Shown here piece by piece: positions 7,359-55,323 of a stretch of DNA of 64,000 nucleotides (position 1 is the stretch's first letter; every line of letters begins with the position of its first letter). The stretch comes from Ginsengibacter sp. (GTDB taxonomy: Bacteria; Bacteroidota; Bacteroidia; Chitinophagales; Chitinophagaceae), in the NCBI GenBank assembly GCA_051959325.1, contig JBQCFI010000289.1:28142-92141 (forward strand), written 5' to 3'. A model generated the notes under the pieces. It searched no databases and was not told where the DNA came from. It worked only from the letters and a program-made list of their open reading frames with translations. A program made the translations under genes and the position numbers.

Positions 7359-7653
7359 GCGAAGATGATAAAATATCCAGATGATAAAATCAATAACTGG
7401 TTTTTGAGTTGTAAAGATTGAGTGGGAAGAAGATGAAGCAAACTGGATTCATTATTTATTGGTGAATTTCAAAATTCTTTTTTGGCGTTTATTTATAACA
7501 TAATCCAAATTCTAATAGCTGCATAGATATTGTATCCTTTTTAGCAGGTTTTTATTAGCAATCATTCACAACAGGATACAATCTCTGGATCATTTTTTTA
7601 TTTTTATAACCAACATTGCAACGGTTGTCACTTATTCAACATCGGTTATTTTA

Positions 7654-8106
7654 TTGCTTTATTCCATCATCAAAAAAAGATTTTTGTTGCAAAGAAAAAG
7701 TTGGTTGGTTTTTATTTCCCTTATTTTAACATCTGCTGTTATTGATAGTTTGAAACATATTGTAAACCGTACACGTCCTTTCATTACTTATCCTTCGATT
7801 CATAACCTGGTAAATGTTTCAACGGCTTCATTTCCTTCGGGGCATACCGGCGAAGTTTTTGTGTTGCCAACCGCAATTACACTTCTTTTTCAGAAACGGA
7901 AATGGTGCGTTTTAGTTGTTTGGATATGGGCATTTCTTGTTGCTTATACCCGCTTGGTTTTAGGGGTTCATTATCCAAGTGATGTTTTAGCTTCCGTAGT
8001 TATTGGAACAGGCATCGGTATTGCTTTTCCGCAATTCTTAATTAAGCGTGGCTTTCTTCAGCATCATATTCGTTGGGAACGATTATATTCAAAGCGGAAG
8101 GAATAA
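7654..8106 (+). CDS. PAP2-family membrane phosphatase #1 (start uncertain, possibly pseudogene)
   Basis: KHIVNRTRP, FPSGH, TRLVLGVHYPSD; in-frame homology (IHNRIQSLDHFFIFITN) continues upstream to about 7540 with no ATG. Confidence 0.8.
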   Translation: MLYSIIKKRFLLQRKSWLVFISLILTSAVIDSLKHIVNRTRPFITYPSIHNLVNVSTASFPSGHTGEVFVLPTAITLLFQKRKWCVLVVWIWAFLVAYTRLVLGVHYPSDVLASVVIGTGIGIAFPQFLIKRGFLQHHIRWERLYSKRKE

Positions 8107-21552: not shown

Positions 21553-22140
21553 TTAAGTTTTAAGTTTATAAAATTTCAATTCAAGCTGTTGATAAATTAG
21601 TGCAAACATCCATCCTGTAAAACTACCAAAGAAGATTCCTCCAATTACATCGCCAGGAAAATGAACACCGAGATAAACCCGGCTATAGCAGACTAATAAT
21701 GCCCATGCAAAAAGCAAATAAGGAAACCATTTAATTTTTTGTTTTGTAATTAATGTAAGGTAAATAGTCAGACCGCTTACATTACAGGCATGAGCGGAAA
21801 TAAAACCAACCTGTCCTCCGCGATAATTGTTTACATAATGTAATAAATTTTCAATGCCGGGAATATGGCTTGGCCGCAATCTTATTTCCATTGATCTTAT
21901 AACCGTTGATGCAATCTGATCGGTACAAACAACTAAAGGAATAATTAGAAGAATTAGAAGCCAGCTTTTTTTACGGTAATAAAATATCAGCAGAAGAATC
22001 AGCAAAAAATAAAACGGATACCAGGAAGTTTCTCCGCTTGCGAACCACATAATTTTGTCCCAGAATAAATTATGATGACTGTTTATCAGCAACAATAGTT
22101 GTTTGTCCCAATAATTAATCCATCGAAGAAATGCCTGCAT
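21553..22140 (-). CDS. PAP2-family membrane phosphatase #3
   Basis: RSMEIRLRP, FISAH (PSGH variant), SRVYLGVHFPGD. Confidence 0.9.
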   Translation of the reverse strand: MQAFLRWINYWDKQLLLLINSHHNLFWDKIMWFASGETSWYPFYFLLILLLIFYYRKKSWLLILLIIPLVVCTDQIASTVIRSMEIRLRPSHIPGIENLLHYVNNYRGGQVGFISAHACNVSGLTIYLTLITKQKIKWFPYLLFAWALLVCYSRVYLGVHFPGDVIGGIFFGSFTGWMFALIYQQLELKFYKLKT

Positions 22141-22741
22141 CTTTTAAAAAATTTTGTTTAATAAAAACCCGGCTGATTATAACAGCTAAGCCGGAACTGA
22201 TAATCATAGAAGCAATGACATCACTTGGATAATGGACACCTAAAACAACCCGTGAATATGCTACCATAAACGCCCATATCCAGATTAAAAACAACCACAC
22301 ATTTTGTTTTGGAAATAAAATACTCAGGGAAGTTGCAATTAAAAAGGCATCTGCTGTGTGTCCGGATGGAAAAGAAGGGCTGCCACCACCTGATAGCTTT
22401 TCTATAAATGAATCCACTTCATAAGGCCGCTGCCGGTTTACCACCTGTTTAATGATTTCTATTATTATCGTATTAATGCCAAGGGAAATGAGTATCAGCC
22501 AGCTTTGCCTTTTTAATTTAAACCGATGTTTTACGAAGGCATATATCAAAAGAAAGACCGGTATTGCATAAGCTACAATATAAGAAGTGTTGGTGATGAA
22601 AATAAAAAAACCATCTAACGGCTTTATTCTTTCATGATTGATGAATTCTAAAAGTTGTAAATCCATTTCATACAATACACGAAAAAAATGTGCAAGAAGA
22701 AAGAAAAGAAAATGTGTGAAGGAAAGATAGAATGTGTGCAC
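22115..22741 (-). CDS. PAP2-family membrane phosphatase #4
   Basis: KQVVNRQRP, FPSGH, SRVVLGVHYPSD; start is GTG 22741 or ATG 22666. Confidence 0.9.
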   Translation of the reverse strand: MHTFYLSFTHFLFFLLAHFFRVLYEMDLQLLEFINHERIKPLDGFFIFITNTSYIVAYAIPVFLLIYAFVKHRFKLKRQSWLILISLGINTIIIEIIKQVVNRQRPYEVDSFIEKLSGGGSPSFPSGHTADAFLIATSLSILFPKQNVWLFLIWIWAFMVAYSRVVLGVHYPSDVIASMIISSGLAVIISRVFIKQNFLKDAGISSMD

Positions 22742-22775
22742 GCCTATAAGATTTAAATTTTATGATTTAAATAAT

Positions 22776-22828
22776 GCAGGCGCCATCAGTCCCTTTCGGG
22801 ACGGTTATACAGGAAGGCTCCATTTCCA
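22776..22828 (-). ncRNA. Fluoride riboswitch (crcB motif) #3
   Basis: Minus strand GGAAATGGAGCCTTCC-TGTATAACC-GTCCC GAAA GGGAC-TGATGGCGCCTGC: same layout as the copies before CLC and crcB; one A-G mismatch in the pseudoknot. Confidence 0.8.
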
Positions 22829-22836
22829 AAAGTCGG

Positions 22837-51502: not shown

Positions 51503-51863
51503 AGCTATAAAAATTAAGGGGCCATAAAATTACAAATTTTACCGTTTTTAAAAAACGATTGATAAAAAAGGAACTTTAAGTCCGCTAACAATCTAATGTA
51601 ATAAACTGCATCCGGATAACACCCAATACAACCTGGAGAACGTTTTTGTTGGATAAAGAGATTAGAAAATAGGTGCTGTTCAAAATAATTTGTACCATGG
51701 TTCATAGCTTTTTGGTGTGGTAATCATTTGAGCTATGAAAAAGGGCTTGATTTGCTTAACCCTTTCTTTTATTCTTTTTCTAGGCAATGAGAGAAAATGA
51801 ATAAATTAAAAAACGTGTTTTGATTCTTTGTGATTTCTTTTATTATCTTCGCGCACTTTTCAC

Positions 51864-51921
51864 AGGAAATGGTGTCTTCCTGAACCAACCGCTTGGCCTT
51901 ATAACCAGCTAATGGCGCCTA
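51864..51921 (+). ncRNA. Fluoride riboswitch (crcB motif) #1
   Basis: GGAAATGGTGTCTTCC-TGAACCAACC-GCTTGG..CCAGC-TAATGGCGCCTAC directly upstream of CLC(F); -7-like TATCTTCG at 51844-51851. Confidence 0.92.
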
Positions 51922-51961
51922 CAAATTATTAGTAGTAATAAACCCGTTATAATTTGTAGGA

Positions 51962-53338
51962 ATGAAGCGAATCAAAACCTCGTTTGAACATATTTTCATA
52001 GTATCTCATCTTCTAAAATGGACGCTGCTTGTATTGCCTGTTTCCATTTCCATTGGCTCAATGGTAGCGTTGTTTCTTTGGCTTTTAGAGAAGGCGATTG
52101 ATTTTCGTTTTGCTCATCAGTGGCTGTTGTTTCTTCTTCCTTTAGCAGGTATTCTTATTTATTTTTTGTACAAATATTTGGGGAAAAATTCTGAAGGCGG
52201 CAACAATCTTATTATGGATGAAATCCATGAACCAGGAGGCGGAATTCCGGCAAGAATGGCACCTTTGGTTTTGTTAACGACTATTATCACACATCTTTTT
52301 GGTGGTTCTGCAGGAAGGGAAGGAACTGCAGTTCAGATTGGCGGAAGCATTGCGCAATTTTTTGCCAGAAAATTTAATCTCACCAAAGAAGAAGTAAAAA
52401 TGTTGTTACAGACAGGAATCGCAGCAGGCTTCGGTGCGGTATTTGGAACACCTATTACCGGCGCCATATTCGCACTGGAAGTTTTGGCAGTAGGCAGAAT
52501 AAAACATGATGCATTATTACCTTGTTTCATGGCAAGTGTTTTGGCAGATATTACCTGCAATGCGTGGGGCATTCACCACACTCAATATCACATGAATTTG
52601 ACAGAAGTTGGCAACACACTTTTTTTAAATTTCCATTTTGATTTTCTGTTATTGATTGAAGTAATTATTGCAGGAGTACTTTTCGGTTTGGTTGGTTTTT
52701 TATTTGCTGAGACCTCACACACCATTTCAAATTATAGTAAAAGATTCATTAAAATCCGCTGGCTGATTCCTGCAATTGGCGGTATAGCGATTATTGCCTT
52801 TACTTATATTTTAGGAACACGTGATTATTTAAGCTTGGGTGTTTTCAATCCTGATAAAAATGGAGTTTCTGTTCTCTCCTGTTTTCAAGCGGGAGGCGCG
52901 ACTTCCTTAAGCTGGTTATGGAAATTATTGTTTACTGCCATTACTCTAGGAACAGGTTTTAAAGGCGGGGAAGTAACACCGTTATTTTTTATTGGAGCAG
53001 CATTAGGAAATACTATTGCGGTACTTACCGGAGCGCCGGTTGATTTAATGGCTGGCCTGGGTTTTATCGCAGTATTTGCGGGAGCTACGAACACACCAAT
53101 AGCTTGCACGCTAATGGGAGTGGAATTATTTGGAGGAGGTAATGTGCTTTACTTTGCTGTGGCTTGTTTTTCCGCCTATTATTTCAGTGGTCATTCCGGT
53201 ATTTATCATTCGCAAAGAGTCGCTGTTTCTAAAGTGAATCATTTAAATCATCATACAAATACCACACTTTTGGAAGTGCGGAATAAAAGAATAAAAAAGA
53301 GAAAACAATGGATAAAAAAATCAAAACTCATTCGTTAG
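51962..53338 (+). CDS. eriC: CLC-family fluoride/H+ antiporter (CLC-F)
   Basis: The F-specific clade signatures GNNLI, GREGT and GEVTP are all present. Confidence 0.93.
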
Positions 53339-53676
53339 GTAAATTAGAAATATACATTGAGCCTGCACATAAAGTGCGTCATGGAGACAGAACTTTATTT
53401 AGAAAATTATTTCCAAAGTCGGTCTATATGCATATTATTTTGGAGGCCAAAAAAGAAGGTATAATCAATACTTCGGCGCACAGTACACATACAAGTTTTA
53501 GCAGTGAAGGAAAAATGACTACTTACAATATGGAAGGCGATAATTCTAAACTTAACATGTGTGTTGAATTAGTTGATAAGAAAGAAAAATTGCAGGAATT
53601 TTTCTTAAAACATAAAGAACTTCTTCGTTCAAAAGTTGTTATTTATAAAGAGGTGGAATTTTGGGATATTGAATGA
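53308..53676 (+). CDS. DUF190 / PII-like protein
   Basis: LEIYI, I..AKKEGI..SA, CVELVD pattern, similar to 54967-55323; overlaps the CLC stop. Confidence 0.75.
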
Positions 53677-53899
53677 ATATCAAACCACAAATTGCATTTT
53701 TCACAGTATTGAAACTAGTATTGACTTGGCGGTAAAAACAGAAACGCTTCATTCTTTTTGTGTAGACTGGAAGCCAAAGTTTTTGAATAAAGAACTAAAG
53801 GAGTTGCTGAGCAAATACTGAACCTGTACCCTTAATTTTGAAAAAGGAATTTTTCCTGTAGCTTTTTGAAAAAAATTCTTTACCTAAAAATATTATAAA

Positions 53900-54319
53900 A
53901 TGAAAGAAGTGATTGCTGCCGGTGGCCTTGTTGTCAATGAATTTAATGAAATTCTTTTTATTTACAGACATTCTAAATGGGATTTACCCAAAGGCCATTG
54001 GGAAAAAGGAGAAACGATAGAAAATTGCGCTTCGCGCGAAGTAAAGGAGGAGACAGGGTTGGAGCATGTTTCTATAACCAGATTTATTGGAAAAACAGTG
54101 CATAATTATTTTGATAGCTATCTAAATGCAGAAGCGGTAAAAGAGACGCATTGGTTTGAAATGCATGCCGGTAAAAGCCAGGAGTTTCATCCCCAAACCG
54201 AAGAAGATATTGAATGGATAAAATGGGTTAGTCCCGCTGGGGTTCATTTTTATCTCAAAAATTCCTACCAAAATATAGCGGAAATCCTTGAAAAATCAGA
54301 CCTCATTCCATCGTATTAA
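53900..54319 (+). CDS. NUDIX hydrolase
   Basis: WDLPKGHWEKGETIENCASREVKEETGL Nudix box. Confidence 0.92.
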   Translation: MKEVIAAGGLVVNEFNEILFIYRHSKWDLPKGHWEKGETIENCASREVKEETGLEHVSITRFIGKTVHNYFDSYLNAEAVKETHWFEMHAGKSQEFHPQTEEDIEWIKWVSPAGVHFYLKNSYQNIAEILEKSDLIPSY

Positions 54320-54456
54320 AATAGTCTTTTCAACGGAAAAAATAAACTGAAAAAAAATTTTGCAGGTGATTATTTACAGTAAATGAACTTTTAATTAAGA
54401 ATTCACTTTTAATTTTTTCTAACTTATTCCCGTTTAAAGAATTCCATTATTTTTAA

Positions 54457-54488
54457 AATCCTTTTTTAAATTAATCCTTTTTTAAATT
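54457..54488. repeat. Perfect 16-bp tandem repeat upstream of the crcB promoter
   Basis: AATCCTTTTTTAAATT x2. Confidence 0.85.
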
Positions 54489-54508
54489 AAACACTTAATT
54501 TTGAAAAA

Positions 54509-54564
54509 AGGAAATGGAGTTTTCCTATTATAAACCGTCCTGAAAGAAGGAATGATAACTCCTG
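54509..54564 (+). ncRNA. Fluoride riboswitch (crcB motif) #2
   Basis: GGAAATGGAGTTTTCC-TATTATAAACC-GTCC..GGA-ATGATAACTCCTG; perfect GGAGTT/AACTCC pseudoknot; -7 box TAATTTTG at 54496-54503. Confidence 0.92.
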
Positions 54565-54586
54565 TTCATTTGTAAAACAAATTACA

Positions 54587-54964
54587 ATGTACAGGATTTT
54601 GGTTTACGTTTTCGTTGGCAGTGCTCTTGGTGGAGTTTGCCGGTTTCTTTCCCAACAATTTGTTCAAAAAAATTTCCCTTCTTACATTCCTTTAGGCACT
54701 TTAACTGTCAACATAATCGGCTCATTTATAATCGGCATTATTTATGCGCTTTCCGAAAAAAGCATCATTTCTCCTGAAGTCAGGATTCTAATAGCCACCG
54801 GGTTTTGCGGTGGCTTTACTACTTTTTCTTCATTCGCTTTTGAGAATGTAAAGCTCTTGCAGGATGGCGAATTTTTTAATACAGGATTATACGTTTTATT
54901 AAGTATAGTCATTGGATTTTTCTCTGTTTACCTCGGCATTTTATTCACTAAATTAATCTCTTAA
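54587..54964 (+). CDS. crcB: Fluc/CrcB fluoride channel
   Basis: GSALGGVCR, GTLTVNIIGSF, TGFCGGFTTFSSF. Confidence 0.96.
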   Translation: MYRILVYVFVGSALGGVCRFLSQQFVQKNFPSYIPLGTLTVNIIGSFIIGIIYALSEKSIISPEVRILIATGFCGGFTTFSSFAFENVKLLQDGEFFNTGLYVLLSIVIGFFSVYLGILFTKLIS

Positions 54965-54966
54965 TT

Positions 54967-55323
54967 ATGGAACTAAGCCGTGATTCAAAATTGCTAAGAA
55001 TCTTTATTGGTTCAATAGATAGTGTAGGCCATCAGCCATTATATGAAGCAATTGTTTTTGCCGCAAAAAAAGAAGGCCTGGCTGGAGCTTCGGTAACCAA
55101 AGGGATTTTATCCTTTGGCGCTTCTTCTTTGGTGCATACAGCAAAGCTGATTGATATTTCAGAAGATTTGCCAATTGTAATTGAAATTGTTGACCATGAA
55201 GAAAAGATTATGCCTTTTGTTGAAGTTGCAAGTAAGTTATTAGAAAAAGCAAATTGCGGCGGCCTTATCACCATTGAAAAAGCGCAGGTGCTTTATTACA
55301 AGTCAAAGAATATAGATCAATGA
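54967..55323 (+). CDS. DUF190 protein
   Basis: LRIFIG, PLYEAIV..AKKEGLAGASV..GI..FG, DLPIVIEIVD. Confidence 0.92.
   Translation: MELSRDSKLLRIFIGSIDSVGHQPLYEAIVFAAKKEGLAGASVTKGILSFGASSLVHTAKLIDISEDLPIVIEIVDHEEKIMPFVEVASKLLEKANCGGLITIEKAQVLYYKSKNIDQ

Follow-up and report, generated by a model that had tools for sequence, protein, structure and literature searches.

Three gene clusters in the 64,000-nt stretch of Ginsengibacter sp. [quoted passage not shown] Each leader is probably a fluoride-activated ON riboswitch whose sequestor hairpin acts on translation initiation. The masking of the start codon is a conserved local variant of a well-known switch, found here in bacteria that make no use of SD sequences. 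We observed the aptamers and their mutually exclusive pairings, which are conserved and covary, identified the true start codons, and found that this genome lacks SD motifs and that other lineages differ. From this anatomy we infer translational control, as well as the opening of the hairpin by fluoride in vivo. The features concerned are as follows (positions in the window).

51856-51928, forward strand: fluoride aptamer #1 (RF01734), pseudoknot 3' strand GCGCC at 51915-51919
51918-51960, forward strand: sequestor hairpin #1, arms 51918-51929 and 51949-51960
51962-53338, forward strand: ClC-family gene, fluoride-type (PF00654, 1.7e-71), ATG 1 nt past hairpin #1
54501-54571, forward strand: fluoride aptamer #2 (RF01734), pseudoknot 3' strand ACUCC at 54558-54562
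54560-54596, forward strand: sequestor hairpin #2, arms 54560-54575 and 54582-54596
54587-54964, forward strand: crcB, fluoride channel (TIGR00494, 114.7 bits; cut-off 80.45)
54597-54612, forward strand: U-rich tail UUUUGGUUUACGUUUU, directly 3' of hairpin #2, codons 4-9 of crcB
22770-22836, reverse strand: fluoride aptamer #3 (RF01734), pseudoknot 3' strand GCGCC at 22783-22779
22740-22783, reverse strand: sequestor hairpin #3, outer stem 22783-22777/22746-22740, inner stem 22772-22765/22758-22751
22115-22741, reverse strand: PAP2 phosphatase gene (PF01569), start GTG at 22741

Fluoride riboswitches bind their ligand through Mg2+. Three of them had been predicted in the window, and all three candidates matched model positions 1-64 of RF01734 well above the gathering score of 34 (45.7, 46.6 and 44.7 bits for aptamers #1, #2 and #3, respectively), so that all three are genuine RF01734 aptamers. 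In the RF01734 alignments, all of them carry the two strands of the pseudoknot, AUGGnG in the P1 loop and nCnCC at the 3' side, which pair as GGUG/CGCC with one G-U in aptamer #1, as GGAG/CUCC in aptamer #2 and as GGAGC/GCGCC with one mismatch in aptamer #3. The aptamers lie in the 5' leaders of genes for the response to fluoride, encoding a ClC family protein, CrcB and PAP2. The product of the ClC gene contains the motifs GNNLI, GREGT and GEVTP, which we take to mark a fluoride-type ClC antiporter (ClC-F), and the alignments with ClC-F orthologues begin at residue 1. crcB heads a crcB-DUF190-MFS cluster, and the PAP2 gene heads a PAP2-PAP2-EamA cluster. PAP2 is a less usual partner gene for a fluoride riboswitch.

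The three hairpins were found largely as the original prediction had described them. In hairpin #1, CCTACAAATTAT (51918-29) and ATAATTTGTAGG (51949-60) form 12 perfect pairs out of 12, span -13 to -2 in the initiation region of the ClC-F gene, and end 1 nt upstream of the ATG at 51962. The 3' arm of hairpin #2 encloses the ATG (54587-89) together with codons 2 and 3 (UAC AGG), as claimed, though the pairing is imperfect, its 14 pairs being interrupted by a U/U mismatch and a bulge. Hairpin #3 overlaps the GTG at 22741 in the predicted span: its outer stem, GCGCCUG with UAGGCGU, comprises 7 bp, two of which are G-U, and leads through an internal loop to 8 bp of AUUUAAAU/AUUUAAAU; the first two bases of the start codon (G and U) are paired in this hairpin, as are positions -1 to -5. 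In every case the 5' arm shares nucleotides with the 3' strand of the pseudoknot as placed by the RF01734 alignment (2 nt plus a U in #1, 3 nt in #2 and 5 nt in #3), again as proposed, and in all three leaders a strand of the aptamer pairs, in a mutually exclusive manner, with part of the initiation region. The position of the AGG in that part varies: it lies 1 nt upstream of the ATG in #1 and downstream of it in #2, and in #3 it is found at the GTG. The further claim that no U-tract follows the hairpins held for #1 and #3, which continue without any U-run into AAUGAAGCG and GCACACAUUC, respectively, and failed for #2, which runs directly into UUUUGGUUUACGUUUU.

The start codon of the PAP2 gene needed particular care. 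Paralogues in the same genome, of 183-195 aa, align only from residue 22 and raised the suspicion of a start at ATG 22666 or TTG 22675. We rejected both candidates because about 20 orthologues of 204-208 aa retain the N-terminal 25 residues, and because three of the orthologous loci (L202-L204) have ATG where the window has GTG 22741. Two of these (L203 and L204) also carry the same aptamer and hairpin, directly followed by the ATG. GTG 22741 is thus the true start, which the geometry of the hairpin had predicted correctly against the comparison of paralogue lengths, indicating its value for annotation. Among the PAP2 homologues of 150 Chitinophagaceae genomes, no further copy linked to a riboswitch was found.

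All three hairpins are more stable than shuffled sequences, with -12.9 kcal/mol and z = -3.3 for #1 (equalled by 0 of 200 shuffles), -12.9 kcal/mol and z = -3.1 for #2, and -13.9 kcal/mol and z = -2.6 for #3. Ranked against 2314 long ORFs in this genome, the minimum free energies of the three initiation regions fall at percentiles of 5.9%, 1.0% and 3.8%, in the structured tail (1-6%) of its initiation regions. When the pseudoknot strand is removed, the fold loses 6-10 kcal/mol (from -16.8 to -10.4, from -14.6 to -6.8 and from -13.6 to -4.0), these figures being derived from truncation models, as forcing the strand unpaired in the fold of the whole leader let parts of the aptamer mispair. The overlap amounts to only 2-5 nt, and the upper stem (about -4 to -9 kcal/mol) could persist with the aptamer folded; the size of the switch is therefore uncertain.

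The hairpin at the start codon is conserved in relatives within the Chitinophagaceae. An aptamer anchor was present in 71 of 80 ClC-F orthologous loci of this family, and in 66 of the 80 a CC-anchored stem of 8 bp or more ended 0-4 nt upstream of the ATG (gaps of 0, 1, 2, 3 and 4 nt in 10, 42, 4, 9 and 1 loci, respectively), the stems having been called from their base and a sample of leaders having also been read by hand. Among 54 distinct pairs of arms, 88% of cells pair, as compared with ~40% when partners are slid. Pairs changed on both sides at 8 of the 12 positions of the stem, and the observed score was reached by 0 of 500 shuffles, a score that is biased toward pairing by the choice of 3' arms for maximal pairing from the base; sequence conservation of the lower stem (CCUACAAAU/AUUUGUAGG) also makes part of the hairpin's conservation uninformative about pairing. 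In crcB, ATG-NNN-AGG was found in 9 of 11 riboswitch-linked loci versus 0 of 19 loci without a riboswitch, and codon 3 of the riboswitch-linked genes can hence pair with the CCU of the aptamer.

The host had been assumed to lack SD usage, and we indeed found no enrichment of SD sequences in this genome: GGAG, GAGG or AGGA occurs at -20 to -5 of 4.3% of 2326 long ORFs versus 5.7% at -40 to -25, and the same ORFs are enriched in A at -13 to -10. Consistently, in none of the three leaders was the sequestered element an SD at functional spacing. A different picture emerged from 30 leaders of Verrucomicrobiota, in none of which the start codon lies within the hairpin or directly next to it; the readable ones have either AGGAGG 5-8 nt upstream of the ATG (SD sequestration) or a hairpin with a U-run (terminator). 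The start-codon geometry had been expected throughout the phylum, but we recovered it in sampled leaders of Chitinophagales and Chryseobacterium, and in a Pedobacter leader (L040-42) whose gene was judged PAP2-like by inspection only. It was lacking in the sampled ClC leaders of Flavobacterium and Pedobacter, both of the same SD-less class; in those of Pedobacter the ATG lies 24-28 nt past the aptamer and no clear sequestor was seen. Other classes of Bacteroidota in the sample mostly have classical terminators or SD sequestration. The word "phylum" is therefore too broad for this pattern.

We propose the following mechanism, with which the evidence on SD absence, ClC-F, crcB, PAP2 and Verrucomicrobiota is consistent, in line with the earlier suggestion that a recurrent ON platform, made of unrelated sequences, targets the region of the start codon and not an SD. 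Without fluoride, the 3' strand of the pseudoknot (..CC-U..) would be free to pair with the downstream segment ending in AGG. The resulting hairpin would bury the stretch from -2 to -13 at the ClC-F gene, the AUG and codons 2-3 of crcB, and the first two bases of the GUG as well as positions -1 to -5 of the PAP2 gene. Once fluoride is bound, the pseudoknot would keep the CC(U) strand, the hairpin would lose its G-C base, and the weak A-U-rich upper stem left behind would permit loading of the 30S subunit. As the lineage does not rely on SD-anti-SD pairing, the 3' arm may have left the place of an SD, 5-9 nt upstream, for the start codon and the A-rich sequence next to it.

Three other explanations need to be weighed against this mechanism. 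At crcB, the platform could mainly or additionally be an intrinsic terminator within the first codons, made of the hairpin at 54560-54596 and the run UUUUGGUUU, which lies inside the coding sequence. As the U-rich tail begins immediately past the stem, termination may contribute at this gene, and 54597-54612 could double as a terminator U-tract. The relatives have U-rich sequences at the same place of their crcB hairpins (CAGGUUUUUUAUUU in L008, CAGGAUAUUUUUUUU in L005 and CAGGAUUUUGUUUU in L173), copies of the crcB-type hairpin distant from the gene in L003, L006 and L038 also have U-rich tails, U7 included, and in a Chlorobiaceae crcB leader (L013) the ATG lies within the stem and is followed by AUUUUUUU. 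Nevertheless, the tail encodes the hydrophobic N-terminus of CrcB (I-L-V-Y-V-F), and crcB genes without a riboswitch are nearly as U-rich there (~4.3 versus 5.3 U in 9 nt by hand count, a small difference that decides nothing). In addition, the stem is A-U-rich with its mismatch and bulge, it was not called by a terminator scan, and a terminator has no need of the ATG and the codon-3 AGG that are strictly kept in the stem. We regard this explanation as unlikely for crcB, and it is inapplicable to #1 and #3, where a hairpin followed by a U-tract upstream of the start was not found.

The output might instead be the level of transcript, through Rho-dependent termination or RNA decay, acting either directly or on exposed untranslated mRNA. 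All three switches lead clusters of several genes, for which polarity would be useful, and the PAP2 coding region opens with 60 nt that are rich in C and U and nearly free of G. In E. coli, translational riboswitches are documented to be coupled to Rho (Bastet 2017, as cited in PMC12667848). However, such an effect would lie downstream of the same occlusion of the start codon rather than replace it, and no independent rut-like element was found upstream of the starts in #1 or #2; we consider this explanation improbable. That the hairpins are incidental, with control residing elsewhere, for instance in the promoter alone or in the bulk of the aptamer near the start, would agree with the sequestor-free ClC leaders of Pedobacter. 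This idea is hardly credible in view of the z-scores of -2.6 to -3.3, the genome-wide percentiles, the covarying geometry in 66 loci, the codon-3 AGG and the recurrence of the arrangement in PAP2 orthologues.

The expression platforms of riboswitches are commonly sorted into terminators and those that sequester the SD. The sequestor helix of the add adenine riboswitch of Vibrio vulnificus, a translational ON switch, includes the start codon; unlike the leaders described here, it also sequesters the SD, in an SD-using organism and with a different aptamer. In the fluoride switches of Pseudomonas syringae and Burkholderia pseudomallei, the segment complementary to the aptamer is the SD (AGGAG), which precedes the AUG by several nt. 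Our leaders share with them the class of aptamer, the ON logic and the competition for the 3' strand (CUCCU), and #1 and #3 likewise lack a terminator, whereas the segment here abuts or contains the start codon or sits in codons 2-3. The P. syringae eriC-F and B. pseudomallei switches (RF01734) served as translational controls in PMC12667848, where a generic covariation motif of "aptamer plus hairpin" is also described. The transcriptional crcB switch of Bacillus cereus has the same aptamer and likewise a hairpin whose 5' arm overlaps the 3' strand of the pseudoknot. In contrast to its terminator platform, #1 and #3 have no U-tract and a 3' arm formed by the initiation region, and the only U-rich tail, at #2, is inside the coding sequence. 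The TPP riboswitches for thiamine transport in Bacteroides thetaiotaomicron, which lie <5 nt from the start codon, control translation with the level of mRNA unchanged (Costliow, Degnan, Vanderpool; bioRxiv 10.1101/867226). They too are riboswitches of the SD-less class Bacteroidia near a start codon, albeit with another class of aptamer, OFF logic and a start-hiding pairing that was left undissected, while the sequestor here is explicit and accompanied by covariation. Structure in the initiation region also tunes initiation in the SD-less Flavobacterium johnsoniae (PMC6847099).

The leaders described above display the platform of the same aptamer where ribosomes ignore the SD, with the sequestor on the start codon or on codons 2-3, in which case it constrains the N-terminus of the protein. 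As natural probes that can be switched by a ligand, they offer a way to learn where an mRNA needs to be single-stranded for initiation in Bacteroidia, and they are potential compact fluoride-inducible translational switches for the genetics of Bacteroidota. It is attractive to speculate, although only tentatively, that the crcB module is of dual use, its RNA pairing dictating the protein sequence through a Met-X-Arg N-terminus whose AGG is set by the CCU, and that copies of it, first codons included, have come to head leader ORFs in SD-less Bacteroidia, which relay the control by fluoride to unrelated genes through termination-reinitiation. If this is true, a start-codon riboswitch plus a leader-ORF relay would be a general route to control of translation without the SD. 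A fourth riboswitch of the genome, just outside the window, would gate a leader ORF of 56 codons, and the TGA of this ORF overlaps the ATG of a MutS4-type gene. No MutS-like orthologue was found in 200 genomes of the family; a 76%-identical orthologue retains the ATGA junction, behind a leader ORF of 70 codons.

Three full-length fluoride riboswitch aptamers were called with cmscan in the window (RF01734; gathering score, 34 bits), and a fourth aptamer lies in the same genome ~1.9 kb past the window end. The aptamers and the genes downstream of them are as follows:

51856-51928, + strand, fluoride aptamer #1 (RF01734, 45.7 bits, full-length)
51962-53338, ClC-family gene downstream of aptamer #1 (PF00654, 1.7e-71)
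54501-54571, + strand, fluoride aptamer #2 (RF01734, 46.6 bits, full-length)
54587-54964, CrcB gene downstream of aptamer #2 (TIGR00494, above its cut-off)
22836-22770, - strand, fluoride aptamer #3 (RF01734, 44.7 bits, full-length)
22741-22115, PAP2 phosphatase gene downstream of aptamer #3
L003 1501-1771 (= G000:C289:94035-94305), locus of the fourth fluoride aptamer (44.8 bits)

The ClC-family protein carries the motifs GNNLI, GREGT and GEVTP, typical of fluoride-type ClC (ClC-F). DUF190 genes follow both ClC-F (53308-53676) and crcB (54967-55323), so that each fluoride exporter has its own DUF190 partner. The PAP2 gene is followed by a second PAP2 gene and then a small EamA gene; another PAP2 paralogue at 7507-8106 (+), in which internal TAG and TAA stops leave a 150-aa TTG frame, is probably a pseudogene.

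The original prediction placed a start-codon-occluding hairpin behind each of the three aptamers, and its coordinates were correct throughout. In hairpin #1, 51918-29 pairs with 51949-60 (12/12 pairs) and the ATG stands at 51962. Hairpin #2 joins 54560-75 to 54582-96 by 14 pairs with one mismatch and one bulge, its 3' arm containing the ATG (54587), while hairpin #3 (22783-22740) comprises a 7-bp outer and an 8-bp inner stem, the former pairing two bases (G and U) of the start codon GTG 22741. Folding energies for #1, #2 and #3 are -12.9, -12.9 and -13.9 kcal/mol (z = -3.3, -3.1 and -2.6 relative to dinucleotide shuffles). When ranked by MFE among the -50..+15 regions taken from 2314 long ORFs in this genome, the three fall at percentiles 5.9, 1.0 and 3.8. 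The predicted overlap with the aptamer was also recovered: the Rfam alignment places the 3' pseudoknot strand at 51915-19, 54558-62 and 22783-79, so the 5' arms share 2, 3 and 5 nt with it, plus the next U.

Folds computed with and without the pseudoknot strand indicate that when CC(U) is held in the aptamer, the G-C base of each hairpin is gone at a cost of 6-10 kcal/mol, leaving only A-U-rich upper stems. The free pseudoknot strand would thus build the sequestor, and the fluoride-bound aptamer would keep that strand and expose the initiation region. We infer that #1-#3 are most likely fluoride-ON translational switches. The accompanying claim that no U-tract follows holds for #1 and #3, which lack a U-run, but not for #2, where the U-rich tail UUUUGGUUUACGUUUU lies directly 3' of the hairpin and allows a contribution from a terminator. 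The same tail, however, encodes the hydrophobic CrcB N-terminus, and riboswitch-free crcB genes contain almost as much U at this position. At the fourth locus (L003), a crcB-type hairpin, CUCCUGUUCAUGG...CUAUGUUCAGGAG, surrounds an ATG and is followed by AAUG-U7, so hairpin, 4 nt and U7 could act as a terminator there.

A leader ORF of 56 codons starts at the ATG in the L003 hairpin, and its TGA stop and the ATG of a MutS4-type gene overlap as ATGA. Two orthologous loci have comparable frames: 70 codons with the same ATGA junction and similar peptide ends in L241 (76% identity), and 60 codons with the stop just upstream of the MutS4-type gene in L242 (65%). These arrangements fit a relay in which the riboswitch would gate the leader ORF and the MutS4-type gene would be reached by termination-reinitiation. 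A few nucleotides before the MutS4-type start, there is an SD-like motif, AAGGAGG in L003 (1750-1771), GCGGAGG in L241 and GGAGG in L242 (in the latter two just upstream of position 501), which in the otherwise SD-less genome of L003 might be a transfer relic or a reinitiation aid. The MutS4-type protein shares ~60% identity with proteins from Moorella and Thermoanaerobacter.

The GTG at 22741 had been doubted as the PAP2 start, as the genome's paralogues (183-195 aa) align from residue 22 only, but the orthologues overturned this doubt. A database search gave ~20 orthologues (66-91% identity, 204-208 aa, 97-100% query coverage) sharing the N-terminal motif M.EF..SFINFL.F.LSHFFKVLY. In two orthologue contigs, L203 and L204, aptamer and hairpin both recur, with ATG directly after ..AUAG(A)GGC(C), where the window has GTG. 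Because the N-terminus and the start position are kept, the PAP2 start is GTG 22741, as the geometry of hairpin #3 had predicted.

The absence of SD usage, taken from the phylum at large in the original prediction, was borne out by counts for this genome itself. Among 2326 long ORFs, GGAG, GAGG or AGGA occurs at -20..-5 in 4.3% vs 5.7% at -40..-25, and G is depleted and A enriched (0.45-0.56) at -13..-10, matching the SD-less, A-rich initiation pattern known from Flavobacterium johnsoniae (PMC6847099).

Orthologues of ClC-F with 62-80% identity were found in Ginsengibacter, Puia, Niabella, Terrimonas, Hydrotalea, Chitinophaga and relatives, which assigns the window to a Chitinophagaceae genome. 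The aptamer 3' anchor is present in 71 of 80 orthologous loci, and in 66 of these 71 a CC-anchored stem (at least 8 contiguous pairs) ends near the ATG, at a gap of 0 nt (10 loci), 1 nt (42), 2 nt (4), 3 nt (9) or 4 nt (1). The arms are separated by loops of ~20 to >100 nt whose sequences are unrelated. Across 54 distinct arm pairs, including the Chryseobacterium-type CCUGAUUA/UAAUCAGG and CCUGCAAA/UUUGCAGG variants, 88% of cells are paired vs 39-47% with the partner slid, 8/12 pairs have changes on both sides, and none of 500 shuffles reached the observed pairing score; sequence is mostly conserved in the lower stem CCUACAAAU/AUUUGUAGG, and the 3' arms were selected by pairing from the base. 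In five ClC-F leaders (L027, L029, L032, L045 and L051; L027 from a Chryseobacterium of family f21, L032 from a Chitinophagaceae genus), the hairpin ends in CAGGA with the ATG 4-6 nt on, which by its sequence is an SD-like spacing in an SD-less class.

The aptamer accompanies 11 of 30 Chitinophagaceae crcB loci. In 9 of these 11, ATG and codons 2-3 constitute the 3' arm as ATG-NNN-AGG (M-Y/V/F/I-R), whereas Arg at position 3 occurs in 0/19 loci without the aptamer; the RNA switch thus appears to constrain the first CrcB residues in this family. The 5' arm sometimes co-changes with codon 2 (UAC with GUA, AUU with GAU), and one relative (L009) has a UUG start at the same place. At another crcB locus (L191), the aptamer strand seems to pair with GGAGCAGGAGG, coding a conserved G-A-G-G motif, a pairing that, read by eye, would enclose the whole start region. 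CrcB-type hairpins with an internal ATG-NNC-AGG-A also precede other genes: enolase in L038 (Bacteroidia family f33), where the short frame from the hairpin ATG stops 4 nt upstream of the enolase ATG, and an M20-peptidase-like gene in L006 (the window's genus), where it stops 29 nt upstream.

Platforms that combine aptamer and hairpin have been described for fluoride riboswitches, both as terminators and as 'sequestering hairpins', with translational examples in P. syringae and B. pseudomallei (PMC12667848); Bacteroides translational TPP riboswitches abut start codons (bioRxiv 10.1101/867226). We found no description in the literature of a start-codon or coding-sequence sequestor in Bacteroidota fluoride riboswitches, for which the comparative sequence support is good. 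Such a sequestor is what a specialist would expect of an SD-less lineage.

Leaders across the phylum were classified by eye and taxa named from exact protein matches, all counts being samples because only 12-16 candidates were scored per genome. Class Bacteroidia (Chitinophagales, Pedobacter, Flavobacterium, Chryseobacterium and others) yielded 31 matches: 22 with the start codon in the hairpin or ≤7 nt past it, three with the same hairpin round an ATG and the annotated gene far away, and six with other leader types (Pedobacter ClC, Flavobacterium ClC). Among ~30 matches from other classes (Chlorobiaceae, Balneolaceae, Salinibacter and further MAG families), 12 have classical ..GGAG-UUUUUU terminators, three have AAGGA 8-9 nt before AUG, and the rest have mixed platforms. 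The geometry sought among Bacteroidota RF01734 hits recurs in most sampled Bacteroidia leaders, but not in the Pedobacter and Flavobacterium ClC leaders. In 30 Verrucomicrobiota control leaders, AGGAGG lies 5-8 nt upstream of AUG or a terminator is present, and 0/30 have the start codon inside or against the hairpin. Judged by these differences, the shift of sequestration to the start codon tracks the SD-less class, not the aptamer.

In three loci of family f20 (L040-L042; member L014 is Pedobacter), the aptamer is followed by a hairpin ending UAGGUG, whose GTG opens a 184-aa frame with the N-terminus MKKLKINSQLLLLAAILIALV and a KRLRP motif. By inspection only, the product resembles the window's second PAP2; blastp against the window PAP2 gave no match, and the C-terminal half looks degenerate (PSALSS in place of the expected PSGH). 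In family f44 (L011, L022 and L028; member L031 is Balneolaceae), a ~60-70-nt palindromic repeat (GUGUCACCCUGAACUCGUUUCAGGGUC...) occupies the loop of the sequestor hairpin, and the closing stem beside the start codon is intact despite the repeat.
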